In this document: piece after piece, positions 3,426 through 52,066 of the stretch | How the letters are laid out: each line of letters opens with the position of its first letter | Position numbering within the stretch: position 1 is the first letter of the stretch | From: a virus | Reading direction: 5' to 3' (one strand) | Virus record (IMG/VR): IMGVR_UViG_3300038336_000025 | Length of the DNA stretch: 64,000 nucleotides | The notes under the pieces: model-generated | Database searches by the model: none | Seen by the model: only the letters and a program-made list of their open reading frames with translations | Told to the model about the DNA's origin: nothing | Position numbers and translations under genes: made by a program

Positions 3426-4568
3426 ATGAAACTTCAAAACAAGTTTACAGACCTTGAAAAACAGGTCAATCAAGCGGTACTCGAAAGAGAAGACGTAATT
3501 CACCACATTATCCTTTCTTGCCTTGCGAAGCAGCACATTTTCTTGCTTGGTAAGCCGGGAGTTGGCAAATCATATATGGCGAAGAAATTCACCGAAGCAT
3601 TTGATTACATCGGTTCCGATGGATCACAGCCGTATTTCCAGATGCAAATGTCTGGCGGTACAGAAAAGTCTGAAATTTTTGGGCAGGTAAGTTTAACCAA
3701 ACTCAAAAATGATGTATTGTGGTATGAATCAGATTCGTATCTACCTAACGCAAGAATTTTCCTGCTCGATGAAATTACAAGAGCAAATAAACTTGCTCTG
3801 GACTCAGTACTTGAGCCAATCAATGAACGCACTTACAAAAACGGTGGTAAGGTGCATAAGACTCCGATTGAATTTGGCTTTGCTACAAGCAATTTCAAAT
3901 TCAACAGCGAACATTTTACCGCGCTGGCAGACAGATTTGTAAGCTGGTTCGAAATTGAGTCTCTCAGTAACGAAGGAAGAAGTTTGCTTCGACGTAAAAA
4001 GTTGAACAAAATGGCGATCACGATCAAGTTTACAGAAGTGGAATTAAAACAGGCCAGAACTGAAGCAATGGTAGTTACACTTTCTGATAAAGCTGATGAT
4101 CTAATCGGCGAAATCAGAGATGCACTTCAATCAGAACATGGTATTGAAATCAGTGACCGTAAAGAAGAAGCTCTTTGTGATCTTGTAAGAGCTGAAGCAT
4201 GGTTCAATGGTAGAACAGAAGCAATCGAAGAAGATGTATTGGCATCTATTCCTTGTTTCTGGATCGACCCGGCACATAAACCGATTGTTACAAAGCTGAT
4301 TCGTAGACTGTGCAATCCTCAGCTTGAAGTAATCGAAGAAACCAAGCTCAATGCTCTTACACTTCTGAGTAATAGCAAAGAGCAACCGACCGCTTACCCG
4401 CTTGAAGATGTAAGCGACCAGCTTAAAAGCTTTATGAAGTCTTTACAGGCAATCAATCCTACGCCAAAAAACAAGGATGTTTACGACAAGGCATTGATAA
4501 CAGTAAAGAAGCTTCAGGAAGCTGTGGCTGAATTGTTACTCGTGAAGATGAAGAAGGTGACTCAGTAA
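3426..4568 (+). CDS. MoxR-like AAA+ ATPase
   Basis: Walker A LLGKPGVGKS, Walker B IFLLDEITRAN; adjacent vWA partner. Confidence 0.8.
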   Translation: MKLQNKFTDLEKQVNQAVLEREDVIHHIILSCLAKQHIFLLGKPGVGKSYMAKKFTEAFDYIGSDGSQPYFQMQMSGGTEKSEIFGQVSLTKLKNDVLWYESDSYLPNARIFLLDEITRANKLALDSVLEPINERTYKNGGKVHKTPIEFGFATSNFKFNSEHFTALADRFVSWFEIESLSNEGRSLLRRKKLNKMAITIKFTEVELKQARTEAMVVTLSDKADDLIGEIRDALQSEHGIEISDRKEEALCDLVRAEAWFNGRTEAIEEDVLASIPCFWIDPAHKPIVTKLIRRLCNPQLEVIEETKLNALTLLSNSKEQPTAYPLEDVSDQLKSFMKSLQAINPTPKNKDVYDKALITVKKLQEAVAELLLVKMKKVTQ

Positions 4569-4574
4569 TACAAC

Positions 4575-4657
4575 GCCGGTACCTAACAAGGTACCGGCGT
4601 TTTCGTATGTAGAAGCAAGTTTAAAATGCTTTAAATCAATTAGAAAGGGGTAATACA
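4575..4657 (+). promoter_or_regulatory. Early cassette E
   Basis: Stem GCCGGTACC/GGTACCGGC; TTTTCGTATGTA (4606-4611); hairpin AAGCA..TGCTT; purine-rich SD before ATG 4658. Confidence 0.7.
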
Positions 4658-5953
4658 ATGGAAACCGTCATGCGTACAAAGCGTGAAAACGAATTCATTG
4701 AAAACCAAATCGAGCAGGATACCCAGTATGCAAACTGGGTAGACTATCGAGAATCACATTTCGGTAACTACAGAGAAGAATTTGGTGATATCTACACTTA
4801 CATGAACAAGAAGCATCCACAGTTCACAGATACACCAAATGCGTTAATGAAGACTTTCCTTGAAAGTAAAAAAGAGGATATCGAGAAGATCAAATCCTCA
4901 ACTACAGGGAAGTCGATGCAGTCTTACATGTCATCGAAGCGGCTCATGTATCTCTATGAAGATGTACTTGAGAAAACGCTGGAAGATTGTAAGAAGAAAG
5001 ACCCTGATTTTAACAACAAGAATCAGGAAGATCAGTTACAGTCTATGAATGAACTTGTAACTAAGTCTCCGCTGAAGGTTAAAATCCGCGTAAACCAGAA
5101 ACTTGAAGAAGTAAAAGACGAAATTGAAGAAGAACTCAATACACTTCAGGTAATTGGTTGTGGTGGCAATGCTGGTAAAGAAGAGAGCATCGACCGTGAA
5201 CGAGCTTTACAATTTCTTCAGATGATGAAGAAAAACTCAATGGTAAAGAAGATCATGGAACAGGCCGGTAAATTCATTAACACAGCGAAACATAAGATTA
5301 TGACTCGCTGCAAAGGTAATGAAGATGTTATCGGTGTAGAACTAGGAGATGATCTTCAGCGCATTTTACCAACTGAGATTGCTCAACTGGCATTACCTGA
5401 GTTTGAATTCTTACAGACTCTTAAATTCGTACAAAAGGAAGTGCCTCAGTATGAAAAAGAGTCTGGTGAGAGTAAAACGATTGGTGATATCGTTGTAGCT
5501 CTTGATGAGTCTGGCAGTATGAAAATAGATGACAACATCGTAAAAGCCAAAGCATTGCTTTTCGGTATCATGGAACAGGCAAAACATGATAACCGAAAGG
5601 TACAGCTGGTTGGTTTCGGTGGTAAAACAGAACACTATCTGATTAAAGATTTAACAATGGAAAAATTGTTAGATGTAATCAGCGTGTTCAAGAACTATGG
5701 TGATACCTGCTTTGAATATCCACTCTCTACAGCGATTGAGATGTGTGGTAAGTACAGCGATGTGATATTTATCACCGATGGTTACGCGCCGATAAGTGAA
5801 CGACTCAAGGCTGATGTAGAAGCTGCAAAGGAAAATCTGAATGTTAAGATAATTACAATGCAGTTTGGTTGTGTGTGTAATGAAGACCTTGAGAAGTTAA
5901 GCTCAAGCTTCAATACAACGTGGTCGCTGTTCACTGACAAGGCACTGAGATGA
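4658..5953 (+). CDS. von Willebrand factor A (vWA) domain protein
   Basis: MIDAS motif VVALDESGSM and downstream FITDG in the C-terminal half; follows the MoxR gene. Confidence 0.75.
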   Translation: METVMRTKRENEFIENQIEQDTQYANWVDYRESHFGNYREEFGDIYTYMNKKHPQFTDTPNALMKTFLESKKEDIEKIKSSTTGKSMQSYMSSKRLMYLYEDVLEKTLEDCKKKDPDFNNKNQEDQLQSMNELVTKSPLKVKIRVNQKLEEVKDEIEEELNTLQVIGCGGNAGKEESIDRERALQFLQMMKKNSMVKKIMEQAGKFINTAKHKIMTRCKGNEDVIGVELGDDLQRILPTEIAQLALPEFEFLQTLKFVQKEVPQYEKESGESKTIGDIVVALDESGSMKIDDNIVKAKALLFGIMEQAKHDNRKVQLVGFGGKTEHYLIKDLTMEKLLDVISVFKNYGDTCFEYPLSTAIEMCGKYSDVIFITDGYAPISERLKADVEAAKENLNVKIITMQFGCVCNEDLEKLSSSFNTTWSLFTDKALR

Positions 5954-22293: not shown

Positions 22294-22374
22294 ATTGCCA
22301 GATAAGGGAGTCGAACCCTTATGCTTTCGCGCTGAAGCTTAAATTCAGTGTGTATTCCATTTCACCAATCTGGC
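22294..22374 (-). tRNA. tRNA-Leu (anticodon UAA), class II; no encoded CCA
   Basis: Hand-folded: acceptor GCCAGAT/ATCTGGC, anticodon loop TTTAAGC, 11-nt variable region, T-arm AAGGG-TTCGACT-CCCTT, A73 then ATG. Confidence 0.85.
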
Positions 22375-22520
22375 AAGTGGTAAGGCGGCAATTGCTTGCC
22401 GCCTACCGATTATAACATCAACCTTTCAGGGCTGCAATTTCCTTGTCAATATCTTCTACAGACATTGCTTCAAGTGATGCATTCAACAGATTAACCATAA
22501 CATATTTTAAATCGTCTGTC

Positions 22521-22556
22521 AAGAAAAAACATCGTTTAAATCATTTAAACGATGTT
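22521..22556 (-). terminator. Intrinsic terminator-like hairpin downstream of tRNA-Leu(CAA)
   Basis: 13-bp stem AACATCGTTTAAA/TTTAAACGATGTT followed on the minus strand by TTTTCTT. Confidence 0.6.
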
Positions 22557-22584
22557 TAAAGAGAGGATTTTCGGACAAACGAAT

Positions 22585-22666
22585 TAGCAAGGGTGGGACT
22601 TGAACCCACAAGCCTCTCGGCGACTGCTTTTGAAACAGCTACGTCTACCAATTTCGTCACCCTGCC
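22585..22666 (-). tRNA. tRNA-Leu (anticodon CAA), class II; no encoded CCA
   Basis: Acceptor GGCAGGG/CCTTGCT (two G-U pairs), Leu-type D-arm ACGAAATTGGTAGACGT, loop TTCAAAA, long variable arm, T-arm GTGGG-TTCAAGT-CCCAC. Confidence 0.85.
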
Positions 22667-22789
22667 ATAGAAAAGGTACCACCGAACTACCGTCTATTTT
22701 GTAAATGGTTGGATTATGAGTCCAACGTTACAAAATGCGTTAGTGCGAAACGTAACGGTTGACACAAATAGTTCAGTAAAAATGTTCGA

Positions 22790-23077
22790 TTATTTCTTGG
22801 AACTCTTCAAACCATTATCAAAAGACCGTTGATACATCTGTTTGTCGGCCAGAACGATTTGAAAAGCTTCTTCTCTTGTAAAGCCAGAGGCCATCAAGAG
22901 TTCAAACTTTTCTTTCACGTATTCAACAGACTTCTTGATGAATAACTTCCTAAAAGCCGGTTCAATGACAGAACCAAATTCTTCCAACACTTCAACAACT
23001 TCTGAAACGAATGGCAATAGCCTGTCCTTTTCTTCTTTGAGTTCTTTTACAATTGCCGCTACCTGATTAAAATCCAC
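22790..23077 (-). CDS. Hypothetical protein (95 aa); start moved to the GTG after GGAGGT
   Basis: The track ORF (to 23155) would run into tRNA-Gln; GTG 23077 has a strong SD. Confidence 0.55.
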   Translation of the reverse strand: MDFNQVAAIVKELKEEKDRLLPFVSEVVEVLEEFGSVIEPAFRKLFIKKSVEYVKEKFELLMASGFTREEAFQIVLADKQMYQRSFDNGLKSSKK

Positions 23078-23110
23078 GAATATACCTCCGAAATAAATTG
23101 TAAAACACGG

Positions 23111-23182
23111 CAGGGGTACAAGGATTCGAACCCTGATTACATGCGCCAAAGGCATGTGTCCTAGCCATTGGACGATACCCCT
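23111..23182 (-). tRNA. tRNA-Gln (anticodon UUG)
   Basis: Acceptor AGGGGTA/TACCCCT, loop CTTTGGC, T-arm CAGGG-TTCGAAT-CCTTG; G73 followed by CCG. Confidence 0.85.
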
Positions 23183-23316
23183 AGATGGTGTAATGGATGG
23201 CTTAATTCCACTACACCGTAAAACAAGAACGGGTTTGAGTTCACGTATCGTTATTGAGCAAAATATTGATAAAAGATTTCAAACCAATGTAACCGGCACA
23301 GCCAGCGTTACATCAA

Positions 23317-23388
23317 AGCCGAAAATAGGATTTGAACCTAAAACCTATGCATTACAAGTGCATTGCTCTACCGTTGAGCTATTTCGGC
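23317..23388 (-). tRNA. tRNA-Thr (anticodon UGU)
   Basis: Acceptor GCCGAAA/TTTCGGC, D-arm GCTC-AACGGTA-GAGC, loop CTTGTAA; no CCA. Confidence 0.85.
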
Positions 23389-23571
23389 AAAGCCGGGAGA
23401 TTTATCAATTTGCAACCCTATTCAATGAGTGCCAACTGCGATTAAATAGGTTTCTCCCGGCAAATTCGGCATATCGACCCTAATCTATCATCTTGTATAG
23501 TTGGTTTGCAACCCAAAAATACACACCAAACAATTATGATGTTTGTCATGAATAGCCGAGCCGACACACAT

Positions 23572-23646
23572 TGCCAGTGATAGGATTCGAACCTACAAGT
23601 TAGTAGTTCCTAAGACTACCGTGTCTACCATTTGCACCACACTGGC
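23572..23646 (-). tRNA. tRNA with anticodon UAG (Leu CUA/CUG reader), Leu-type D-arm, but only a 6-nt variable region
   Basis: GCCAGTG TG GTG-CAAATGGTAGA-CAC G GTAGT-CTTAGGA-ACTAC TAACTT GTAGG-TTCGAAT-CCTAT CACTGGC A; no CCA. Confidence 0.7.
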
Positions 23647-23743
23647 GATCTTTGGTATAGTCCTGTTCACAACAATGACTAACAGGAGTAAGCATGTCAT
23701 TGTTTTCGTAGCCTACATCAACCAAAGCTGGCTACCTACGCGG

Positions 23744-23828
23744 CGAAAAGTGAAGGATTCGAACCTTCGGTACCTTTCGGTACACAAGTTTAGCAAACTT
23801 GCTGTTTAAACCACTCACACAACTTTTC
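23744..23828 (-). tRNA. tRNA-Ser (anticodon GCU), class II
   Basis: Acceptor GAAAAGT/ACTTTTC, loop TTGCTAA, variable arm GTACC-GAAA-GGTAC, T-arm GAAGG-TTCGAAT-CCTTC; G73 then CCG. Confidence 0.85.
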
Positions 23829-23887
23829 GAAAATGGGTAGGTGAGGCACTACCCGCGAAATACTCTCACATTAACTGCACAATACAA

Positions 23888-23959
23888 AGGGGAATGGTGG
23901 ATTTGAACCATCGACCTAGCGGTTAACAGCCGCTTGCTCTACCACTGAGCTAATTCCCC
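23888..23959 (-). tRNA. tRNA-Asn (anticodon GUU)
   Basis: Acceptor GGGGAAT/ATTCCCC, D-arm GCTC-AGTGGTA-GAGC, loop CTGTTAA; no CCA. Confidence 0.85.
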
Positions 23960-24043
23960 AAACAGTTGTAAATTGGTGGCAATATTAATGACCTTTGCTC
24001 TTACCTCTTGGAACGGTCAAGCAAGCGGCCAATTTACAACTTC

Positions 24044-24412
24044 GGTGGAAGTGACGGGAATTGAACCCGTGTCCGAACAGATTTACATTCATCCATCTAC
24101 ATCGTTATCTTTTTTGTTATCTTTTGGAACACAGGATAAAAAGCTAAAGTTCCAATGTTTCCAGCAACCACAGTAGGCACTCATGTAGGGTCACAGTGAT
24201 AATCTCCCCTAGCCACTAGCTGCTTTTATGTTACACCTAGCCTGAATCGTCGCAGCAACTATTCAGGTAGATGGTTGTAGCGGCTTACGCGGCTACAGCG
24301 TTGTATGATTCTTCGTTGGCGTTTAAAGCCTGACCGACTTTTAACGTAGCCTCTCGGTCAACTACGCGATGCAAGATGAGTTTCAACTGCCCGTCGAAAC
24401 CATTTCACCCCC
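24044..24412 (-). ncRNA. ssrA: tmRNA (SsrA), one-piece; tag reading frame ANEESYNAVAA-stop at 24285-24320
   Basis: 5' GGGGGTGAAATGGTTTCGACGGG, 3' GGACACGGGTTCAATTCCCGTCACTTCCACC; G3-U70 Ala identity pair; GCC AAC GAA GAA TCA TAC AAC GCT GTA GCC GCG TAA. Confidence 0.9.
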
Positions 24413-24557
24413 AGAATTACACATTTGTCTATCAAATTTGTTAAAAAGTGAGAGACAATTGTGTTTGTCCTTCATATATGATTGTCGTTTCAATCCACGT
24501 ACCAAATTATTGATACGACATTTCATCAATGTTATTGTCAAAGATCAAAAGAATCGG

Positions 24558-24630
24558 TTGCTAGGGCAGGATTCGAACCTACGTAATGATGGTTTATGAT
24601 ACCATTGTCTTACCACTTGACGACCTAGCA
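24558..24630 (-). tRNA. tRNA with anticodon CAU (Met, or Ile2 if lysidinylated)
   Basis: Acceptor TGCTAGG/CCTAGCA, loop ATCATAA, T-arm GTAGG-TTCGAAT-CCTGC; A73 followed by CCG. Confidence 0.75.
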
Positions 24631-31357: not shown

Positions 31358-34300
31358 TCAATTCCATAAAAAGCTTCGACCGGCTTTAGCAGAACCCGAT
31401 GAATTGCCCTTGACATAATATTCATTCCATTTCAATGTCGGATAGGCAACGACCAACAGCCTTTCAAACGCCGGGAATATCTTGTTATTCCAATAGTAAG
31501 ATTCATTGTATTTACCAGTGAATGCATAGAGTGGCCTTGGTAGCGGCTTCTGTCTTGTGTCAAAGCTTTCAATGAAGTATTGAACCTTGTCACCAACCCA
31601 GAAGTCTTTACCATCTTTAAGCATCTGAGCAGCTACTTTTGTGTGCATCATCGGTTTATCATATTGATCAATAGGCTTTGTAACCTTCTGAGCAAACATC
31701 AGTTCATCCAATGGAAGCTTGCTGGAAAATACTTTGGTTTGTTTATCAAGAATCCATGCCCGGATATCAATTGGTGATGGTGGTTCATCTGACAGAATCC
31801 ATTCAAGAATTTCTTTCTGGTATTTCTTAACGAAACCACATTGATCTGTTCTGACATATTCAAAACCAGTGATCTTCAGTTTACAAGGATTAACTTCATG
31901 ACCATCAAGGTAGTCGAGATAACCAGCGTAACGCTTTTTGGCATTAACGATTAAGAATGTTCTGAATCCTTTATCATAGGACATTTCCAGTGTACAAACA
32001 TCTGCATTAAATTCTTCTTTGGCAATTTTATCGCACAACTTCTGAATCTTACCCAAGAGGTCTATGACATCATCTACCGATTTGATCTTGTCTACAAACA
32101 ATGAATCTGTATTGTGTAATAGAATTGAACCCATTGCATCAACAAAGTTGTGATTATCGGCTACCGACAAATCATAAAGATAATCATCATAATCAATTGG
32201 TTTGCAAATATTTTCTATCAAGTGCTTACCATATCCTTCATTGATCAGATTCTTAACGGTATAGGTCTTTTTATTAAAGTTACTCTGACAAACAACCACC
32301 ATACCAACCTGTTTCATGAGAGTAGACAATCCAGAAATCAACTTAATTGAAGCTGATTCGAAATCATAGTTCGTGCCGCTTTTTATTTCTGTAATTGAAC
32401 CATCACCAATCATTAGCTGTTGGATGAAATGTTTCTTTTGCTCCAACGACAATCTATAAACAAAGTTTGGTATTCTTTTTTGGTCATATTTTTGTCCACA
32501 AAGTTGTCTAAATACAATAGCCTGTAAACAAGTCATCATCTGTAGTTTATTATTACCATCAGATTGACACAATAATCCATTTTCTGCATTTTTGAATAGC
32601 CAGTCTGTTGTTTGTTTTAATTGATTTAACAACCAGAAATCTCTTGACGCAATTGATGTACCTTTACGACTTTGTGTTGTTTCCGGGGTCGATGATGAAC
32701 CATTACATATATAGTGCGCCAACAAACTTAAAAAGCCATTGAACATCGGGTCATTAACATTGAGATGCCGCAACATTGTTGTCTTTTTGACTTGATTGTG
32801 TGATAAGAAAATCTTTTCACTATCTGCGGTTAAATAGACATCCCCACCACGCTTTCTTGTGTAAGAATATGGTTCCATATAATCTAATAGGTCGATTGTC
32901 GTGATTGGTTGTATGTCTGGTAATTGAGTTAAACTGAATGCATTAAAGCCGTCTGTTGGCTTAAAACATTGCCCCTCTGAATTTATCAATGAATGATCTT
33001 TTGATACTTCAGTAACGCCATGTCGGTATCTATAGTGGTAGACTTCTTTTTTAACTTTATGTCTTATGACACAATCAACCGACTTCCATTCGGAATCATG
33101 TGTTTGAAAGTTGTATGAGAGTGCTGTTACATTTTCATCAAAACTTCCATATTCTTTTCCATCCTTGATATATCGCTTGGTTGTTTTATTGAACAATTCT
33201 TCAAAGGATACAACGGAAACATCATCATTTGTTTTAATAATCGTACATCTGTCTTTAGTTACACTATCACCGTAAATTATAATGTATCCTTCATCCTCTA
33301 GGAACTTAGCACCAGCTTTATTAAAATACTGACCACCAAGAGTTACAGATTCAGCAACCCTTGTATCATAAAATCTTGTATGTGACTCGCCTAGTGCTCC
33401 GTAAAATGAAAGACCAAATGATTTGTAAACATATTGAAGGTTATCATATGTTTTATGCATCAGAGAACCGGGAGATTCTTTACTCATTAGGTCTTTGTAG
33501 AAATCTCTCTTCTCTTTCATTCTGGTAATAACTTTTGGAAGGATGCCAATAAAATCTTTCCTGAATCTATGACCACTTGGGGTTTTGATACACATTTCAT
33601 CAGGAACGCTATCATCTGTAACAAGAGTATCAGGTGAAATATTCAGTGTTTTGATGACGTTTGGGTAAAGTGATGAATAGTCAAATACTTTAACATTCTT
33701 GTATCTTCCGGGCTTTGGTGGGAATACATAAGCCCCTTCAAATTTATCATCATCTTCGTCATCGTCTTGTATCAACTGACCATTTTCATCGTATTCCCTG
33801 ATGATCGTTTTAAAGTGATAATGTTTATCTTCCTGTGCCTGTTTAACGATGAGATTGTCAACTTTTCGAGTGATAAACAAGTCATCACAAGGACACATAC
33901 CGATAGCATTTACGTTTCTTGCAACAGCTAGATACTTTGTTTTCATTTCAAGTTCATATTGCCGTCTTACGTCAACTCTATTGTATTTCTCAAGAAGTTC
34001 TGGGTGGTTAAGCCACATCTCATAAACACCAATACCTTCATGTTGAACCTTACCTTCGCCGAGGTATTCTTGTGAAACATTTTCAAGAGAGTATGAACGC
34101 AATGATACAGACTTCTGAAATACCTTCATCTGATCCTGATGAAATATTTTACGCCAATCGAGTTGTATTCCATATCTCATCATCCTCGATTTCACGTATG
34201 GTAAGTCAAAGGATATCCCGTTCCATGAGATGATTACATCATATGAGTTAAAGATTTTACCAATCTTAATAAGTAATTCTTTCTCTTCTTCATCTGTATC

Positions 34301-34852
34301 TTCAGCAATTTTCAAAAATGCTTCTTTACCATCAACCAAATCCTTGAAAGCAACCGATAAAATGCGGAATTCTCCGGGGATTGGCTGACCGTTCTTAATG
34401 CGATCATCAGTTTCAATATCGAAGAATAAACATTTGTAATCCTGTTCAAACTCTACGTTATCCTGCAAGGCAAATCGTTTGTGTGGTGGTATATCAGCTT
34501 CAAATGTTTCACATTCAAGCATCTTCAGCTTTTCAAGCATGTCATTGAATGCGAATGTCTTGTAACCCCAATCTCTTTCCATTTCCTTGTTTAAGGACTC
34601 TGTTTTGTGTGGGTAATCAGCATAAATCTTAACGTATTTACCATCAGGTTCAACCGAGTTGATGACGTTGTTGCTTGTGAACTGGTTAAACTTGCTTCTT
34701 AACCGTTCATAATCTTCGGCTAAGACGTAGAAAAACCAAGCAAACTTTGTTTCACCGATTCCCTTTTTACCTGTCTCTGGATTCCTGTAGACGTAGGCTA
34801 TTTTATTTAAGCCTCTATCCCATGCTCTCATTATCTTGAACTTTTCGGCCAT
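31358..34852 (-). CDS. Family B DNA polymerase, intein-containing precursor
   Basis: Exo I FFDIETD, Exo II SWNGISFDLPY, motif A DYSSLYPNVI, motif B KSFGLSFYGALG, motif C YGD//TDS split by an insert. Confidence 0.95.
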   Translation of the reverse strand: MAEKFKIMRAWDRGLNKIAYVYRNPETGKKGIGETKFAWFFYVLAEDYERLRSKFNQFTSNNVINSVEPDGKYVKIYADYPHKTESLNKEMERDWGYKTFAFNDMLEKLKMLECETFEADIPPHKRFALQDNVEFEQDYKCLFFDIETDDRIKNGQPIPGEFRILSVAFKDLVDGKEAFLKIAEDTDEEEKELLIKIGKIFNSYDVIISWNGISFDLPYVKSRMMRYGIQLDWRKIFHQDQMKVFQKSVSLRSYSLENVSQEYLGEGKVQHEGIGVYEMWLNHPELLEKYNRVDVRRQYELEMKTKYLAVARNVNAIGMCPCDDLFITRKVDNLIVKQAQEDKHYHFKTIIREYDENGQLIQDDDEDDDKFEGAYVFPPKPGRYKNVKVFDYSSLYPNVIKTLNISPDTLVTDDSVPDEMCIKTPSGHRFRKDFIGILPKVITRMKEKRDFYKDLMSKESPGSLMHKTYDNLQYVYKSFGLSFYGALGESHTRFYDTRVAESVTLGGQYFNKAGAKFLEDEGYIIIYGDSVTKDRCTIIKTNDDVSVVSFEELFNKTTKRYIKDGKEYGSFDENVTALSYNFQTHDSEWKSVDCVIRHKVKKEVYHYRYRHGVTEVSKDHSLINSEGQCFKPTDGFNAFSLTQLPDIQPITTIDLLDYMEPYSYTRKRGGDVYLTADSEKIFLSHNQVKKTTMLRHLNVNDPMFNGFLSLLAHYICNGSSSTPETTQSRKGTSIASRDFWLLNQLKQTTDWLFKNAENGLLCQSDGNNKLQMMTCLQAIVFRQLCGQKYDQKRIPNFVYRLSLEQKKHFIQQLMIGDGSITEIKSGTNYDFESASIKLISGLSTLMKQVGMVVVCQSNFNKKTYTVKNLINEGYGKHLIENICKPIDYDDYLYDLSVADNHNFVDAMGSILLHNTDSLFVDKIKSVDDVIDLLGKIQKLCDKIAKEEFNADVCTLEMSYDKGFRTFLIVNAKKRYAGYLDYLDGHEVNPCKLKITGFEYVRTDQCGFVKKYQKEILEWILSDEPPSPIDIRAWILDKQTKVFSSKLPLDELMFAQKVTKPIDQYDKPMMHTKVAAQMLKDGKDFWVGDKVQYFIESFDTRQKPLPRPLYAFTGKYNESYYWNNKIFPAFERLLVVAYPTLKWNEYYVKGNSSGSAKAGRSFLWN
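32111..33265 (-). mobile_element. Intein (385 aa) with LAGLIDADG homing endonuclease, inserted between YGD and TDS of PolB motif C
   Basis: Starts with Ser530 (YGD|SVTKD), block B TEVSKDH, dodecapeptides LSLLAHYICNGS and QQLMIGDGS, ends ...DNHNFVDAMGSILLHN|TDS. Confidence 0.85.
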
Positions 34853-41429: not shown

Positions 41430-41747
41430 TCAACCACCGCGCTCGATTGCGTCACGTCTCATGAGTTCTTCATACATAATCAGAACCGCCGATTTTCCAT
41501 GTAATTCCGAAAGTGTTACAATGTCTTTTATCTGTATATTACCAGTTTGTAATATATTTCCATTAACATCTTTCAGTGTCATTGAAACCGTGTTGACAAC
41601 ACCACGTTTGACAGGCTCTTTGACGTAAAACACCGTCGTCTTATCTTTGTGTTTACAATCTTGACATATTGAATCACCATTGAGTCGTCTTTCACTTGCA
41701 ATATTTTCACTTCCACATTTAGGACATTTTGGATTAGACATGTTCAC
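41430..41747 (-). CDS. Zinc-ribbon protein (105 aa)
   Basis: CPKCGS...CQDCKH. Confidence 0.6.
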   Translation of the reverse strand: MNMSNPKCPKCGSENIASERRLNGDSICQDCKHKDKTTVFYVKEPVKRGVVNTVSMTLKDVNGNILQTGNIQIKDIVTLSELHGKSAVLIMYEELMRRDAIERGG

Positions 41748-43573
41748 ACTTCCTTTTCAAATTGTTTCAAAATATTAGCTTCCATTTCAGCAACGATATC
41801 ACCAAGATTGTCATCGCTGGAATCATCACCCAAACTTTCAATTACCTTATCAATAAGGTCTTTCTTTGTTTCCCATTGTTTATGAATGATTTCTTCAACC
41901 GTTCCTACTGTAATAAACCGATAAAGATGAACATCATGATCTTGGCCGCTTCTATAAGCTCTACCAGCTCGTTGCATTGTAATTGCTGGTTTAATAGGTA
42001 TATCCCATTCTATTACAATTCTTGCAGATTGTATGTTCTGACCATAGTTGATTTTATCAGTTGTTACAAGAGCTTTAATGTCTGGTGTATTATTAAACTC
42101 CTGAACGACTTTCAAAGCATCTTTACCATCACCTCCCATACATGTAATGTATTTGAATCCAAGCTGCTTTAACTTCCTTGCTATAGCAGCTACACCGCAC
42201 TTAAAGAATGTAAAGATAATAACTTTATCACTGGTCTGACCAATAATATCTTCCAGTAATTCAAACTTCGGATTCTCATCCCACCCACCACGACTTGTAT
42301 CGCAAAGAAATTGTCTGGCGTTTACATATCTTGCACTACCAACAAATTGCTTTTTATACTCGATGTAACTCTGATGAAATCTGGCAGACGGTTCCACAAA
42401 TACATCATGCCTGTATAACTTAACCGGCAAATCAAGTTTCTTCTTGATGATGTAAGGCGCAATCAGGTTCTTAACGTATTGGTGGTTTTTAAAGCCAACA
42501 GCAACGATTTCTGTCTTGAAGAAAACCTGCTTAGACCCTTTCATTCGAAATGGTGTCTGGCGTTCTTCATATTCTACAAAGTTTGTTTCAAAAAACTTGT
42601 GACCACCAAGAATCTTCCCATCATCAAGCAGCTTAAACACTGGGTAAATATCAAACAATTTATTCTCAATTGGTGTTCCTGACATTGGATAACGGTAACG
42701 AGGTTTCCAACAATCCTGAACCAACTGGAAAAAGTTGATACTTCGTTGAGCTGAAATAAAGTTCTTCATCTTGTGAAATTCATCTACAACGATCATATCA
42801 AAGCTTAAATTCTTCAGATGATGAACATCAAAATTACATTTTTCATAGTTTGTAATAAGTGTCTTGTATTGAGAAACACCTTTAAACATTTGATACATAG
42901 CTTCGCGTTTCTTTGGTGGTTCTGTTGTAATTTTAAACATTTCGCCATCACCAAAGAATTTACCATAGTCAGAGTAAAAGTTTTCTACAAGTGATGCTGG
43001 TAACATGATAAGTGTCTTTTTCACACCACCATATTTTTTGAGGTATTTATCGACTGTTAAAGCAACAAGCGTTTTACCTGTTCCAATGTCATTGCCGATA
43101 ATAATACGTTCACCAATTATGCTGTAAACGATTGTTTCGACTTGGTTCCCATAATATTGAAAGTCTTTTCTGTAAAGTCTGAAGAAACGTTCTTTAATGT
43201 GTAATTCGCATTCAAGAATAAAGTTAAGAATCTGCTTTACATCTTCATCAGCCGCAGAGTATTTACGTTCCTTTAATTCAACCAATCGTTTGCGATGGTT
43301 TGTATAATCGTCATATTTCTCTTTTAAACCATCGGTGAACTTGATTGGATATTTAATTTCTTTAAGCCGGTTAATCAACACAGGCAAGGCAATAAACGGT
43401 ACTTCATATTTGCTGTTACGAAAACGAGCACAAAGAGCATAAGAACATTTATCCTGAACGGTTAAAAACTGTTCGTTCGTTTCTTCGCTAATAGTTATTT
43501 GATGATTTTTCTCGTTATAACCTAATTGCACACTGATTTCTCGGTTTTCAAAAGATTTCGTTAAGCATAGCAT
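41744..43573 (-). CDS. SNF2-family helicase/translocase
   Basis: Motif I GTGKT, motif II VVDEFHKMKN, motif VI QRAGRAYRSGQ. Confidence 0.9.
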   Translation of the reverse strand: MLCLTKSFENREISVQLGYNEKNHQITISEETNEQFLTVQDKCSYALCARFRNSKYEVPFIALPVLINRLKEIKYPIKFTDGLKEKYDDYTNHRKRLVELKERKYSAADEDVKQILNFILECELHIKERFFRLYRKDFQYYGNQVETIVYSIIGERIIIGNDIGTGKTLVALTVDKYLKKYGGVKKTLIMLPASLVENFYSDYGKFFGDGEMFKITTEPPKKREAMYQMFKGVSQYKTLITNYEKCNFDVHHLKNLSFDMIVVDEFHKMKNFISAQRSINFFQLVQDCWKPRYRYPMSGTPIENKLFDIYPVFKLLDDGKILGGHKFFETNFVEYEERQTPFRMKGSKQVFFKTEIVAVGFKNHQYVKNLIAPYIIKKKLDLPVKLYRHDVFVEPSARFHQSYIEYKKQFVGSARYVNARQFLCDTSRGGWDENPKFELLEDIIGQTSDKVIIFTFFKCGVAAIARKLKQLGFKYITCMGGDGKDALKVVQEFNNTPDIKALVTTDKINYGQNIQSARIVIEWDIPIKPAITMQRAGRAYRSGQDHDVHLYRFITVGTVEEIIHKQWETKKDLIDKVIESLGDDSSDDNLGDIVAEMEANILKQFEKEV

Positions 43574-43617
43574 ATAACAAGTTTAAACGCAACTAAAAAA
43601 CTTATCTAAAATTTTTC

Positions 43618-43650
43618 TTGACGAAAAGCTTTAGCCTATGATATTATCAT
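43618..43650 (+). promoter_or_regulatory. Strong sigma70-type promoter: TTGACG, 18-nt spacer, extended -10 TGATATTAT
   Basis: TTGACGAAAAGCTTTAGCCTATGATATTATCAT; near-palindrome ATGATA-T-TATCAT (43638-43650) overlaps the -10; points into the ORF-free region. Confidence 0.7.
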
Positions 43651-43653
43651 TTT

Positions 43654-44175
43654 GCGGTCGTAAGATCGAGGTGAGCATCTCTAGCGATAAGTGTAAATTT
43701 ATCGTGATGCATGATAAAACCGAAGGGAAAACTGACCTTCTCTGTCCTACTTGTGTTCCCGTCTTAATCAAACGGATTCAACACGGTACTGACGGGCCTC
43801 GAAACTGCTTTCTAAACAGTAACAGGTTAATAAATGCTCTTGTTGGACACCAATCGGTATAAGACAAACAGCTATATTAACAGCCAACAGCTTGCAGGGA
43901 TGTGAGTATAAGGGTTGAAATTATATCCTTGGTTGGTAAGCGAGATTTAATTGACGGGCAGCTTAACAGCTTAACTTGATTTCATCGGACTCTGAAGTCA
44001 CTAGATTGTAAGTCGAGAAGATTCTTAAAGGCACCTGCCATATCTGTTATGATTTGGTCGTGGTGTGGTGATGAATAATTGCCGCACCCATCAAATGTAA
44101 ACACAGTTAGATATGGTAGGAAACTGATTTGTCGTACCCGATAGTTAAAAGTGGTCATAAAACAAATCAGTTAAA
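43654..44175 (+). ncRNA. Candidate large structured non-coding RNA (about 0.5 kb; ends are approximate)
   Basis: No credible ORF; promoter just upstream; hairpin 43674-43711; 12-bp helix 44034-44045/44109-44120; adjacent 11-bp helix 44121-44131/44160-44170; visibly more G+C than the flanks. Confidence 0.45.
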
Positions 44176-44482
44176 AGCTTATATAAGATTCTTATGTATA
44201 ATTGGCATGGCATTTATATAATGCGTAGTTACAGTGTTATACATATAGAAATTTATGTATTGCTTGTCATTAACCAGAAATGGTGTTGAGAATACAGGTT
44301 CATTTGGAAGAAATTCTAAAAAAGAAGGAACCTACGGAGGATGATTTCCTCTGCTAAAAATTGACGAAGTCAAGTTTTTAGTTAAATACCAGTAATTACA
44401 GGAAATTACCAATATTACACAGAATACTGTTTTAATTGTGGATTACTAGATTTTTTACTGGTTTATTAAAAAGGATAAATAA

Positions 44483-44710
44483 ATGCTTAATTATATATTA
44501 ATTACTATTGGTTATTTAACAATTGGCTTTGTTGTTGCGGTAGTTACTTTAATTTATGATCATAGTGATGACATAGATCGAGACAATTTTATAAAATTGT
44601 CTATCTTTTTATGGCCGATTGTTTTGTTAATCTTGTCGTGGTTGTCTGTATCATCATTCATATGTGAGAAAACGATAAAATTGGTTAATTATTTGAAAAA
44701 GCGATTATGA
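44483..44710 (+). CDS. Membrane protein (75 aa)
   Basis: ORF track; AAAGGA SD; two TM helices. Confidence 0.6.
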   Translation: MLNYILITIGYLTIGFVVAVVTLIYDHSDDIDRDNFIKLSIFLWPIVLLILSWLSVSSFICEKTIKLVNYLKKRL

Positions 44711-44973
44711 TACAATTACCGCCATTTAAACATATCTTTCCAATTAATAGAACAAGGATATTCCCAAGTTGGGGAAATTCTTATGTAGACAATTGGGTAA
44801 GATTTGAAACATTTATTGGTGGTGTTGATGTCAATGATAGTTGTGTTATGTATTTTGGAACGCCGAGCCAACCGGATAGACCTGACATTTGGGAACGATT
44901 TGCTAACTGTCAGGCTCCTAGAATGGTGGATGTTTGTGTTGCTTCTTTTCCACATCCGGGCAGAACACCTTAA
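44707..44973 (+). CDS. Hypothetical protein (88 aa)
   Basis: ORF track; ATGA coupling. Confidence 0.55.
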   Translation: MIQLPPFKHIFPINRTRIFPSWGNSYVDNWVRFETFIGGVDVNDSCVMYFGTPSQPDRPDIWERFANCQAPRMVDVCVASFPHPGRTP

Positions 44974-44983
44974 ATAAATTTTC

Positions 44984-45012
44984 TTGACAAAGTTTAAATG
45001 ATGTGCTATTCT
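44984..45012 (+). promoter_or_regulatory. Sigma70-type promoter TTGACA-N17-TATTCT with TG extension
   Basis: TTGACAAAGTTTAAATGATGTGCTATTCT. Confidence 0.5.
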
Positions 45013-48512: not shown

Positions 48513-49961
48513 ATGCTTTCTAAATTAAAAACATTTGCTCAAGACATTAACAAAGAACTTGATGGTATACTCTATCTAGTGGGTGGTTCTGTTCGCGATA
48601 TGATTATGAACATAGCACCAAAGGATTACGATCTTGAACTGTTTAGAGTCTGGCCGAAAGACTTTGTTAAATACCTCGATAAAAAGAAAATCCCATTTAA
48701 GTTTAACAGCGATGCAAAATTCCCTGTTTACCGTGTCTGTATTGTGAATAACCTTCTTGACGATGAAGAATGGGTTGAAGTTGGTTTCCCTCGTGTAGAC
48801 AACAAGACAGGCCCGAAACATTCAGACTTTGAATGTCTTGTAGACCCATTTATGTCGGTTATTGATGCCGCGATGAGAAGGGATTTCACAATCAATGCTG
48901 TTTATTACAACCTTTTAAAAGATGATTACGAGAATCATGGCTTTGTTAGCCATATAACACACAGTAGGGAATTATCCCCTGTTCACATGGAGAAGTTTAA
49001 GGAAGACCCACTTCGTATTATGCGCGGGTTCCAATTTGCTTCTCGTTTTGGGCTATATACGGCTGATACTCTTGAAACCGTTGATGTAGATATGATCAAT
49101 GGATTATCACATGTAGACCCAAGCGGCATCTACGCTGAATTTGTTAAGGGAATTACAAAGGCAAAGAACATCACAAATGCTCTTGAATACCTTTGTTCAA
49201 TAGCATTACGAAATAACGGTTCTGAATTCTTTAAACCTATTACAGAAATGTTTTATTGCTTACAGAACGCCAGACACCATTTCGAAGGTAATGTTTGGGA
49301 ACACACAAAACTCGTTATCAAGAATGCTATTGAACTGGCAGATACCGATGATGAAAAGGTTCTCCTGTTCTTCGCTGCTTTCTTCCATGACATAGGCAAG
49401 ATACCAACATTTAAACTTGATACCGCCGGGAATCCAACTGCTCATGGTCACGATGTAGAAGGTGATGATCTGGTTGAACTTTATGGTAGTCGTTTCGGAT
49501 TACCAAAGAAGATGATTAAACAGATTATCGTTTTGAAACACTGCCACATGATTGGTAATGATGCCAAGAATAAGAAGCTTTATTTAATGGCAGAAGAATT
49601 AGAGAAAGTCGGCCTGAATTTCGATATCCTTTGTAAGCTGATGCTTGCTGATGTTTATGGGTCTGTTAAGGAATATTTCAGAAGCACTGTTAGAAGTCAT
49701 GGCGAAATCTACAATTTCATGGCGAAAATTAAATCTCTTGGAATTGAGCTTAAACCATTGCGAATGTTTGTCAGTGGGGATGATATTCTTTACCACAGTA
49801 ACGGTAAAATCAAAGGTAAGAAACTTGGTGATCTGCTTTATGAAATGAAGATGTTGCAGATTAACAATCGTGTTGCAACACGACAGGAAGCATTTGATTT
49901 TATGAAAAAACGCATCGAAAATATTTTGGAGAAAATAGTTGACAAAGAAACGCCTGAATGA
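48513..49961 (+). CDS. cca: tRNA nucleotidyltransferase (CCA-adding enzyme) with HD domain
   Basis: GGSVRDMIM..DYDLE, RRDFTINAV, HD domain FFHDIGK. Confidence 0.8.
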   Translation: MLSKLKTFAQDINKELDGILYLVGGSVRDMIMNIAPKDYDLELFRVWPKDFVKYLDKKKIPFKFNSDAKFPVYRVCIVNNLLDDEEWVEVGFPRVDNKTGPKHSDFECLVDPFMSVIDAAMRRDFTINAVYYNLLKDDYENHGFVSHITHSRELSPVHMEKFKEDPLRIMRGFQFASRFGLYTADTLETVDVDMINGLSHVDPSGIYAEFVKGITKAKNITNALEYLCSIALRNNGSEFFKPITEMFYCLQNARHHFEGNVWEHTKLVIKNAIELADTDDEKVLLFFAAFFHDIGKIPTFKLDTAGNPTAHGHDVEGDDLVELYGSRFGLPKKMIKQIIVLKHCHMIGNDAKNKKLYLMAEELEKVGLNFDILCKLMLADVYGSVKEYFRSTVRSHGEIYNFMAKIKSLGIELKPLRMFVSGDDILYHSNGKIKGKKLGDLLYEMKMLQINNRVATRQEAFDFMKKRIENILEKIVDKETPE

Positions 49962-50944: not shown

Positions 50945-52066
50945 ATGAATAAAACATTTAAATATAGAATTTACCCAACAAAGTCACAAGTTAAAAAACT
51001 GAATGACAACATTCGGGCTTGTCGATTTGTTTGGAATACCTTTCTTAATGAAAGGAAAGTTCTGTATGAAACGGAAAAGAAGCAAATCTCTTGCTTTGAT
51101 CAAACAGCAAAACTAACTGAGCTGAAAAAAGAATTCCCATTTTTAAAAAATGCGTATTCACAGTCATTACAACAAATTGTTATCAAATTAGATTTGTCCT
51201 TTAAGTCATTTTTTAGACGCATCCAAAACGGAGAAACACCGGGGTATCCGAGATTTAAAGGATGTTATCGACTAAGTTCTATATATTTCACCCAATTTGG
51301 TAAGGGTTGTAAAATAGCTAATGGAAAGTTAGCCGTTTCTAAAATTGGTGATATAAAACTAGTTTATCATCGCGAATTAATAGGAACTCCAAAAACAGCA
51401 ACGATTAAACGTACACCAACTGGTAAATGGTTTGTATCTATCTGTTGTGAAACTGATAATACCATATTGCAAACAAACGACTTATCTGTTGGTATTGATT
51501 TGGGTATTAGCAAGTTTGCTACTTTTTCTGACGGAACAGTTATTGAAAATCCGAGATTCTTCAAAGAAGAAGAAATCAAAATCAAGAAAGCTCAGAGTAA
51601 AACAGACAAACTTGTTAAAGGTTCTAAAGAACGATTTAAAGCTAGAAAGGTTGTTAATCGTATTTATGAACGTTTAAGCTGGAAGCGAGACAATTTTTCT
51701 CATCAAGAGAGTAGGAAGGTGATAAATAAATATCAAAATATCATTCTTGAAAAGTTGGAGATATATAAATTGATACACAATGGATACCCAAACTTAAACA
51801 AATGTATAACAGATGTAGCATGGAATAAATTTACAAGTTTGGTACAATACAAAGCGGTAGAAGCTGGTAGAACTGTCATTCTTGTAAATCCTAAAAATAC
51901 CACAAAAACTTGTAGTCAATGTGGTAAGATTGTTGATAAATCTCTAAGTGAACGAGTACATAATTGCTCTTGTGGACTTGTATTAGATAGAGATTTAAAC
52001 GCAGCTATTAACATTTTAAGATTGGGAACACAATCTTTACAAAGACTCTGCCTCTCGGCAGAGTAA
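50945..52066 (+). mobile_element. tnpB: TnpB (IS200/IS605-family OrfB) RNA-guided nuclease gene, catalytic triad intact, no TnpA nearby
   Basis: N-terminus KYRIYPTKSQVKKLNDNIRACRFVWN; RuvC-I VGIDLGI; RuvC-II ILEKLE; Zn finger CSQCG...CSCG; RuvC-III DRDLNAAINI. Confidence 0.85.
52018..52063 (+). ncRNA. Two adjacent hairpins in the last 49 nt of tnpB: candidate 3' end of the omega (re)RNA scaffold / IS right end
   Basis: AAGATTG-GGAACA-CAATCTT (52018-52037) and CTCTGCC-TCTC-GGCAGAG (52046-52063), ending at the TAA stop. Confidence 0.4.

Follow-up and report, generated by a model that had tools for sequence, protein, structure and literature searches.

A gap between genes in the genome of an uncultured phage carries what is best read as a new class, or a small and previously undescribed family, of large structured RNA that occurs in one clade of uncultured phages about 120 kb in size. 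The DNA analysed is a 64,000-nt stretch (hereafter the window) from IMG/VR record IMGVR_UViG_3300038336_000025, and its source contig of roughly 123.5 kb (ENA ERZ27239240, k141_164039) is identified as phage by gene content. Positions 43574–44482 of the window form a point of transcriptional divergence, with the gene for an SNF2 helicase on the minus strand to the left and small plus-strand open reading frames (ORFs) from 44483 onward to the right. An ORF scan of the window at a 60-aa cutoff places the longest ORF-free stretch here (43863–44482) and the runners-up in an island of tRNA and transfer-messenger RNA (tmRNA) genes, which bears out a preliminary description of this sequence that had called the region by far the largest gap. 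The same description had proposed that a strong promoter drives a large structured RNA from this site, and this proposal is now supported by covariation and by the lack of a coding signal. On balance, we lean modestly towards reading the gap as an independent gene for a structured non-coding RNA (ncRNA) of about 726 nt, which would act in trans as a free, folded and abundant early RNA.

The promoter is the best sigma-70 match within positions 43300–44800, scoring 10 out of 12. It comprises the −35 hexamer TTGACG (43618–43623, plus strand), an 18-nt spacer and the hexamer TATTAT preceded by TG, which together form the extended −10 element TGATATTAT (43639–43647, plus strand). Every related locus keeps both hexamers at a spacing of 17–18 nt, the −35 as TTGAC[AG] throughout the four RNA types A–D described below and the extended −10 as TGnTAnnnT in relatives, and the sequence of the spacer differs among them. 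Thus, the near-consensus promoter that had been described as firing rightwards holds up by score and by conservation, whereas the palindrome said to overlap the −10 element (ATGATATTATCAT, 43638–43650) exists but is not conserved in relatives. Promoters of the same class (TTGACA...TGATATAAT) occur at five other sites in the window (50108, 44984, 25710, 14305 and 20382). All five run straight into a Shine–Dalgarno (SD) sequence and a start codon, and the RNA promoter alone runs into hairpins. The candidate therefore has a promoter of its own, as would a free-standing ncRNA gene. A box, TTACYNGTTTAYTA, was considered as a general phage promoter motif and was rejected because it is not enriched in the window.

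Related loci, all metagenomic, were reached through homologs of the neighbouring helicase. The RNA type present in the window, which we call type A, is also carried by L014 (nearly identical to L015) and L045, and three further loci (L001, L002 and L061) are copies of the window sequence. The three distinct type-A sequences align over about 800 nt and are roughly 80% identical in blocks, with stretches of near-100% identity, such as the 80 nt at 43736–43815, alternating with variable ones. Block conservation, base pairing and folding statistics point to a candidate plus-strand RNA gene at about 43654–44379, for which transcription would start about 7 nt past the −10 element and the 3′ end is set at a run of T nucleotides. 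The G+C content is 0.40–0.43 over 43600–44100, compared with 0.32–0.35 to the left, 0.24–0.31 to the right and a window mean of 0.363, so that the G+C enrichment previously noted for the first 500 nt or so is real but mild.

The plus strand folds far more stably than shuffled sequence and also outdoes the minus strand, in that its fold z-score is −3.96 over 43650–44200 (−0.89 for the minus strand) and −5.5 over 43654–44379 (−2.7 for the minus strand). Applied to the three type-A sequences, RNAalifold yields a structure of 251 pairs, 28 of which are compensatory in that both sides have changed and the pair is kept. Column shuffles give 10.6 ± 2.7 such pairs (0 of 500 reach 28), and sliding the partners by 1–3 columns, a control that preserves the relatedness of the sequences, gives 2–3. 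To avoid the circularity of this count, the fold of the window sequence alone was projected on the relatives, where it finds 23 compensatory pairs against 8.3 ± 2.3 in shuffled and 0–5 in slid controls. Comparison of homologous regions, which the preliminary description had named as a check, thus reveals many compensatory changes. The best-supported elements are a hairpin with the stem 44122–44132/44162–44172, an A+U-rich hairpin at 44175–44265 and a long bent hairpin at 44034–44120. Furthermore, many pairs are invariant G·U pairs that would be A·C on the other strand, which argues that the folded species is the plus-strand RNA.

The 5′ part of the predicted structure begins directly after the promoter with hairpin H1 (43655–43668), in which CGGUC pairs with GAUCG. 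H1 covaries across types A and B and includes a G·U pair that is invariant (5 of 5 sequences). It is followed by H2 (43675–43710), composed of an outer stem GCAUC/GAUGC (43675–43679/43706–43710), with covariation among types A, B and C at all six of its pairs, and an inner stem CGAUAA/UUAUCG (43685–43690/43699–43704). The predicted fold next contains H3 (43722–43740), with GAAGG (43722–43726) pairing with CCUUC (43736–43740), in whose position type C has GGCGAAG/CUUCGCC. Adjoining H3 is domain D1 (43741–43796), a stack of four helices that is near-invariant within type A and carries the apical loop CUUAAUCAA (43763–43771).

A long-range helix is predicted by alifold, mostly from invariant pairs, and would close the central domains. 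Its 5′ strands, CCUCGAAACUGCUUUCU and GGUUA, lie within 43797–43829 and its 3′ strands, UAACC and AGAAAUGGUGUUGAGA, within 44271–44291, such that 43797–43813 pairs with 44276–44291 and 43825–43829 with 44271–44275. A UGGUGU block of the 3′ strand is also present in type C, where the equivalent strands are GGUUAUUGU and ACAAUAAC. Enclosed by this helix would be the central sub-domains (43834–44032, helices 10–18), with a few compensatory pairs and variable loops; the long bent hairpin (44034–44120, helices 19–20), with three compensatory pairs; the hairpin at 44122–44172, whose 11-bp stem AACUGAUUUGU/ACAAAUCAGUU is compensatory at 5 of 11 pairs; and the long A+U-rich hairpin (44175–44265, helices 23–26), with about 10. 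Farther downstream lies a 3′ hairpin, CGGAGGA/UCCUCUG (44335–44353), within a G-rich motif followed by UCU[GC][CU]nAA that recurs in types A–D. The last element, read from the sequence at 44356–44379, is a weak terminator-like hairpin of the form A5-UUGAC-GAA-GUCAA-G-U5. In L014 and L045 its stem is AUGAU/AUCAU followed by U6, consistent with a terminator that, though weak, is kept by compensatory change within type A. All elements named here are on the plus strand.

Four of the five helices proposed in the preliminary description recur in the computed folds. The H2 helices, placed at 43674–43711, are present with a covarying outer stem, and GAAGG/CCTTC at 43722–43740 is present and conserved. 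The 12-bp helix 44034–44045/44109–44120, part of the bent hairpin, is also present, although two of its central pairs are lost in relatives, and the 11-bp helix is real but had been placed 1–2 nt from its actual position. The exception is TGTTGG/CCAACA (43840/43884), because both folds pair CCAACA with a GTTGGT farther downstream and because TGTTGG lacks conservation.

Coding potential offers a poor account of this conservation. Most of the indel lengths among the type-A sequences, which include 2, 7, 21, 31, 1, 3 and 11 nt, are not divisible by 3, and substitutions are distributed over the three phases as 67/75/54, with no 3-periodicity. The plus-strand ORF 43638–43862 starts inside the −10 element and lacks an SD sequence, as previously pointed out, and it is truncated or frameshifted in relatives. 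In favour of a protein, a minus-strand ORF at 43982–44158 (58 aa) is open in all three type-A loci, with 70–80% amino acid identity in L014 and L045. However, its substitutions at codon positions 1/2/3 number 3/12/7 and 4/11/5 in the two comparisons. Position 2 rather than position 3 is thus the most changed, the opposite of coding constraint, and the L045 copy carries deletions of 2 nt and 1 nt. Like its plus-strand counterpart, this ORF has no SD sequence. The idea that the two ORFs encode small conserved proteins is therefore scarcely credible, and no translated small ORF, the finding that the preliminary description had said would overturn its proposal, explains the region. The minus-strand ORF instead serves as an example of a reading frame preserved through conservation at the RNA level. 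Stop-codon recoding that hides a gene was likewise rejected, given the non-triplet indels and the lack of a suppressor tRNA and of 3-periodicity. Non-triplet indels, the absence of phase bias, unconserved ORFs and the missing suppressor tRNA together indicate that the region is non-coding.

Equally pertinent is whether the apparent structure might be a by-product of palindromes in regulatory or spacer DNA, or of relatedness among sequences. The independent sequences are few, and relatedness alone can exceed shuffle controls. Nevertheless, this explanation is very unlikely because the slid controls, in which relatedness is kept, yield at most 5 compensatory pairs where 23–28 are observed, because the fold z-scores are asymmetric between strands and G·U pairs are conserved, and because blocks of near-100% identity extend over 80 nt inside a region that is otherwise about 80% identical. 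The comparative data thus point to a conserved plus-strand secondary structure that is backed by covariation and carries no coding signal.

This RNA matches no Rfam family. Searches with cmscan assigned it none in a scan of the window at the gathering score, none over 43400–44700 at E ≤ 10 other than chance hits and none in the relatives at E ≤ 1; the 4,227 Rfam covariance models returned only chance matches to eukaryotic small nucleolar RNAs and microRNAs over 43400–44700 (E = 2.7–7.4). Classes rejected for want of an Rfam match include GOLLD (RF01998), ROOL (RF03087), OLE, HEARO, raiA, group I and II introns, RNase P, tmRNA and 6S RNA. Thus, the RNA is not GOLLD or ROOL, and the outcome of the Rfam search that the preliminary description had suggested favours its option of a new class. 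ARAGORN detects no tRNA-like element in the RNA. A tandem-repeat RNA such as a ToxI-like antitoxin was set aside because the RNA body has no repeats, and an antisense or target-pairing regulator was set aside because no significant complementarity exists elsewhere in the window, where the complement of the D1 loop is also absent.

GOLLD usually adjoins or contains tRNA genes. No tRNA gene lies within the RNA region described here, and the tRNA island, at 22295–24630, is some 19–20 kb away. The resemblance to GOLLD and ROOL that had been suggested therefore applies in kind (large, phage-borne and ornate) but not to model match or tRNA linkage. Both of these classes form RNA-only homo-oligomeric nanocages, and GOLLD consists of a conserved half and a less conserved one (PMC12286853). 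The RNA family reported here is similar in its size of about 0.45–0.8 kb, its multi-domain build with variable and conserved parts, its location in a phage with a tRNA island and its predicted status as an independent transcription unit. It differs in that it heads a replication module beside a repeat array. Abundant orphan phage ncRNAs of similar size do exist (PMC7567579; PMC12286853). Phage ICP1 produces an ncRNA of about 800 nt from an ORF-less gap of about 1 kb (PMC7567579), and phage K expresses long ncRNAs (PMC9241854). Like these, our candidate would be an orphan large non-coding transcript that fills a long ORF-free gap of a lytic phage. However, theirs were found by RNA sequencing with no conserved structure reported, whereas ours was found through comparative structure.

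Beyond type A, the related loci reveal a family that is modular. Type B, about 450 nt long with 21 compensatory pairs, is carried by L013, L004 and L003 (the last nearly identical to L046); type C, about 430 nt long with 9 such pairs, by L005, L062 and L006 (the last equal to L063); and type D by L016, where the ORF-free gap measures about 1,150 nt. Types A–D differ in the core but have in common the promoter, hairpins H1 and H2 directly after it, and the G-rich 3′ motif. In a hand alignment across types, 8 of 12 pairs of H1 and H2 covary. H3 and D1, the latter with the loop CUUAAYCAA, are further elements common to types A and C. A hand alignment of D1 between these two types, which leans towards structure, shows compensatory changes at 9 of 19 pairs, with 95.9% paired. 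A covariance model built from type A only (R1) matches the D1 location in L006 and L005 at E values of 0.6–1.7; it is too sequence-specific for a significant type-C match, so that type A had to be compared with type C through hand alignments, which favour the structure.

Especially telling is L013 (Ga0265294_10054747), which encodes a helicase 97% identical to that of the window yet carries a type-B RNA, indicating that the core is swapped between near-identical phages. Its downstream gene, a PD-(D/E)xK-looking sequence of 206 aa, replaces the 75-aa ORF of the window, and the two loci are similar in the promoter, in H1 and H2 and in the 60 nt or so before the first rightward start codon. This difference resembles the exchange of a cassette inside an otherwise constant frame. 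Downstream neighbours vary between loci, even among those with the same RNA type.

The family is rare, comprising about ten loci. Helicase relatives that share no more than 56% identity have ordinary genes upstream and no RNA. No additional copies emerged from motif scans of IMG/VR and of 185,579 genomes, which returned only the known contig or chance matches in coding sequence, and a blastn search of the region against INPHARED phages gave no match.

Between the putative terminator and the first rightward ORF lies an A+T-rich segment (44380–44482) in which repeat inspection finds degenerate copies of TTAC-type sites about 10 bp apart. The G+C content is 0.236 over 44356–44482, terminator included. 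Sites in the segment comprise TTAAATACCAG (44382–44392), an inverted pair ACCAGTAA/TTACTGGT and the box TTACTGGTTTATTA (44455–44468), which occurs only once in the window. The iteron-like unit, TTAAATAYYAG, has a period of about 10–11 bp and is far clearer in relatives, whose arrays contain 6–13.5 copies. L005 has 13.5 tandem 11-bp copies (positions 2309–2456 of that locus) and its close relative L062 only a few, which indicates that copy number changes fast. In L063/L006, two distinct 11-bp arrays, AGTTAAATACT in six copies and AAACAGGTAAA in eight, lie upstream of the helicase. A repeat array persists even at loci that differ in both RNA core and downstream gene. As a separate observation, L016 has three long direct repeats, GGTTAGACT/GGTTGGACT plus TTTTATAAATAATTnTTTATAATTTT, some 190–400 nt upstream of the helicase start; lying between the helicase and the RNA promoter, they constitute a second, different repeat set in the intergenic region.

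In the model we favour, host RNA polymerase would start at the conserved early-type sigma-70 promoter with its extended −10 element. The transcript would fold into H1–H3, the four-helix domain D1 and several long hairpins, the latter probably closed by the long-range helix, and it would end at the 3′ purine/pyrimidine hairpin and the weak A/U-rich terminator. Such an RNA would be neither an mRNA nor a gene-specific leader. Presumably stable and acting in trans on whatever its target may be, it might work as a scaffold, a decoy or an assembly, by analogy with the mode of GOLLD and ROOL or with the ICP1 ncRNA. A frame of promoter, 5′ hairpins and G-rich 3′ motif would stay constant in the family while the core is exchanged to give types A–D. 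We favour a free RNA that acts in trans because selection on structure spans the whole length, because the RNA has a putative terminator of its own and no fixed downstream gene, and because the core is accessory-like.

Several observations weigh against this model. The case for an RNA gene is built on comparative structure, with both transcript ends predicted. The distinct type-A sequences number just three, of which two are close, and the covariation statistics therefore reflect few events. The long-range helix hardly varies and hence gains nothing from covariation. Within the window, no antisense match to the RNA was found. The terminator falls below the 3-GC threshold of the scan, and so went uncalled, and types B and C show no evident one. 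Between the terminator and the first rightward gene (44380–44482), the scan detected no sigma-70 promoter, and in combination with a weak terminator this means that the RNA may also be a leader. Last, the setting, with its divergence, skew switch, A+T-rich repeats and T4-like replisome, fits a replication origin (PMC3016281). The terminator, the iteron-like array and the origin-like context were all missed in the preliminary description and give a serious alternative function.

The alternative with the greater claim, possible though distinctly less probable than a free RNA, is that the transcript serves as a structured pre-primer or activator of an adjacent origin, in an arrangement akin to T4 oriF, oriG and oriE or to ColE1 RNA II. 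The early promoter would then fire towards an A+T-rich unwinding element that bears evenly spaced repeats. In ColE1, RNA II is a pre-primer of about 0.55 kb whose structure is required, in which a G-rich segment aids hybrid formation and RNase H processes the hybrid. Here, correspondingly, the G-rich 3′ part of the RNA, which is found in all types just upstream of A+T-rich DNA, would nucleate an R-loop, and the phage RNase H would process it. The cumulative GC skew turns at about 43.7–43.9 kb, together with the divergence of transcription, although skew is confounded with gene orientation. The leftward module encodes a family-B DNA polymerase (PolB), a DnaB-like helicase, a gp32-like protein, a ligase and RNase H, and the phased repeats and the locus-specific box TTACTGGTTTATTA also speak for this reading. 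A parallel exists in T4 oriE, where an early promoter accompanies 12-nt repeats at even spacing, and origins of T4 in general coincide with divergence and skew shifts (PMC3016281). The window shares with T4 oriE, oriF and oriG an early or middle promoter directed into an A+T-rich element at such a shift, near genes for a T4-like replisome and RNase H, but clear 11-bp arrays are found only in relatives and the window sites are degenerate. Moreover, T4 origin transcripts need no specific structure (PMC3016281), whereas about 700 nt are under structural constraint here and, in type A, a putative terminator separates the RNA body from the repeats. The ColE1 parallel extends to a structured transcript that proceeds towards origin-like DNA and contains a G-rich segment. 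However, no promoter-like site for an equivalent of the antisense RNA I was found on the minus strand within 43650–44380, no Rfam or sequence relation to RNA II is apparent, the genome is that of a phage rather than a plasmid, and the core is freely swapped between near-identical phages.

An unlikely alternative would make the RNA a long cis-acting leader for the rightward early operon, whose structure and weak terminator would set read-through into 44483 and beyond, with H1 and H2 acting as a put- or nut-like element or the body acting as a sensor. The weakness of the terminator, the lack of a sigma-70-like promoter after it and the position of H1 and H2 directly behind the promoter in all types would suit such a leader. 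Against it, the gene downstream differs among loci with the same RNA type and is absent in L014, and this variability makes a cis-acting leader less likely. A length of 450–730 nt is far above known leader sizes, types B and C have no clear terminator, and the next gene (45048) is preceded by a promoter of its own at 44984.

A broader and more tentative scheme is a new modular family of ornate phage RNAs that has constant termini (5′ hairpins and a G-rich 3′ hairpin by the iteron array) and freely exchanged cores of 300–600 nt. Its function would then be that of a structured, ColE1-like origin pre-primer or specificity determinant, or that of a self-assembling or decoy RNA. The pre-primer or determinant version, if true, would be without precedent in phages with a T4-type replisome. 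The decoy or self-assembly version would imply that the core diversifies under pressure from host defence. Bacterial and phage RNA classes known to exceed 400 nt and to have complex conserved folds number no more than a handful, and each one that has been studied has given unexpected biology. To these few large ornate classes, the present locus adds a well-delimited candidate with promoter, body and putative terminator. Its three to four natural core variants in a constant frame amount to a ready-made swap experiment on the role of the core, and the origin-like array beside it makes testable whether structured RNAs take part in the firing of phage origins.

Among the genes flanking the RNA, the constant neighbour is the SNF2-family helicase (41744–43573, minus strand), which has Pfam matches to SNF2-rel_dom, DEAD, ResIII and Helicase_C and homologs P0001–P0049, and which opens the leftward replication module. 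The first rightward ORF (44483–44710, plus strand; 75 aa, SD sequence AAGGA) is not a constant neighbour of the RNA, and other genes take its place in types B and C. Plus-strand genes farther on include those for a CCA-adding-type nucleotidyltransferase and for TnpB. The former (48513–49961, plus strand), with a PolyA_pol head and an HD domain, lies 4 kb downstream of the RNA and is conserved in the type-B locus L004. The TnpB-type ORF (50945–52066, plus strand) has HTH_OrfB_IS605, OrfB_IS605 and Cas12f1-like TNB domains; a guide (omega or re) RNA is expected at its 3′ end, where Rfam flagged nothing. In the replication module, the family-B DNA polymerase (31358–34852, minus strand; 1,164 aa) has a weak intein-splicing match at residues 548–914 (26 bits, below Pfam's 35.8-bit cutoff) and may carry an intein.

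The contig of the window and those of relatives (P0001 and P0071) were deposited in bins named Bacteroidetes and Methanoculleus. Promoters of this phage are of the classical TTGACA/TATAAT kind with an extended −10 element and not of the Bacteroidetes type, which makes the host assignment by binning doubtful. The tRNA island (22295–24630, minus strand) contains eight tRNA genes (three for Leu and one each for Gln, Thr, Ser, Asn and Met) and, inside it, a tmRNA gene (24043–24412, minus strand; 156 bits) with the tag ANEESYNAVAA. Near the left end of the window, a MoxR-type AAA ATPase (bpMoxR) and a VWA-domain protein are encoded as a pair at 3426–5953 on the plus strand.

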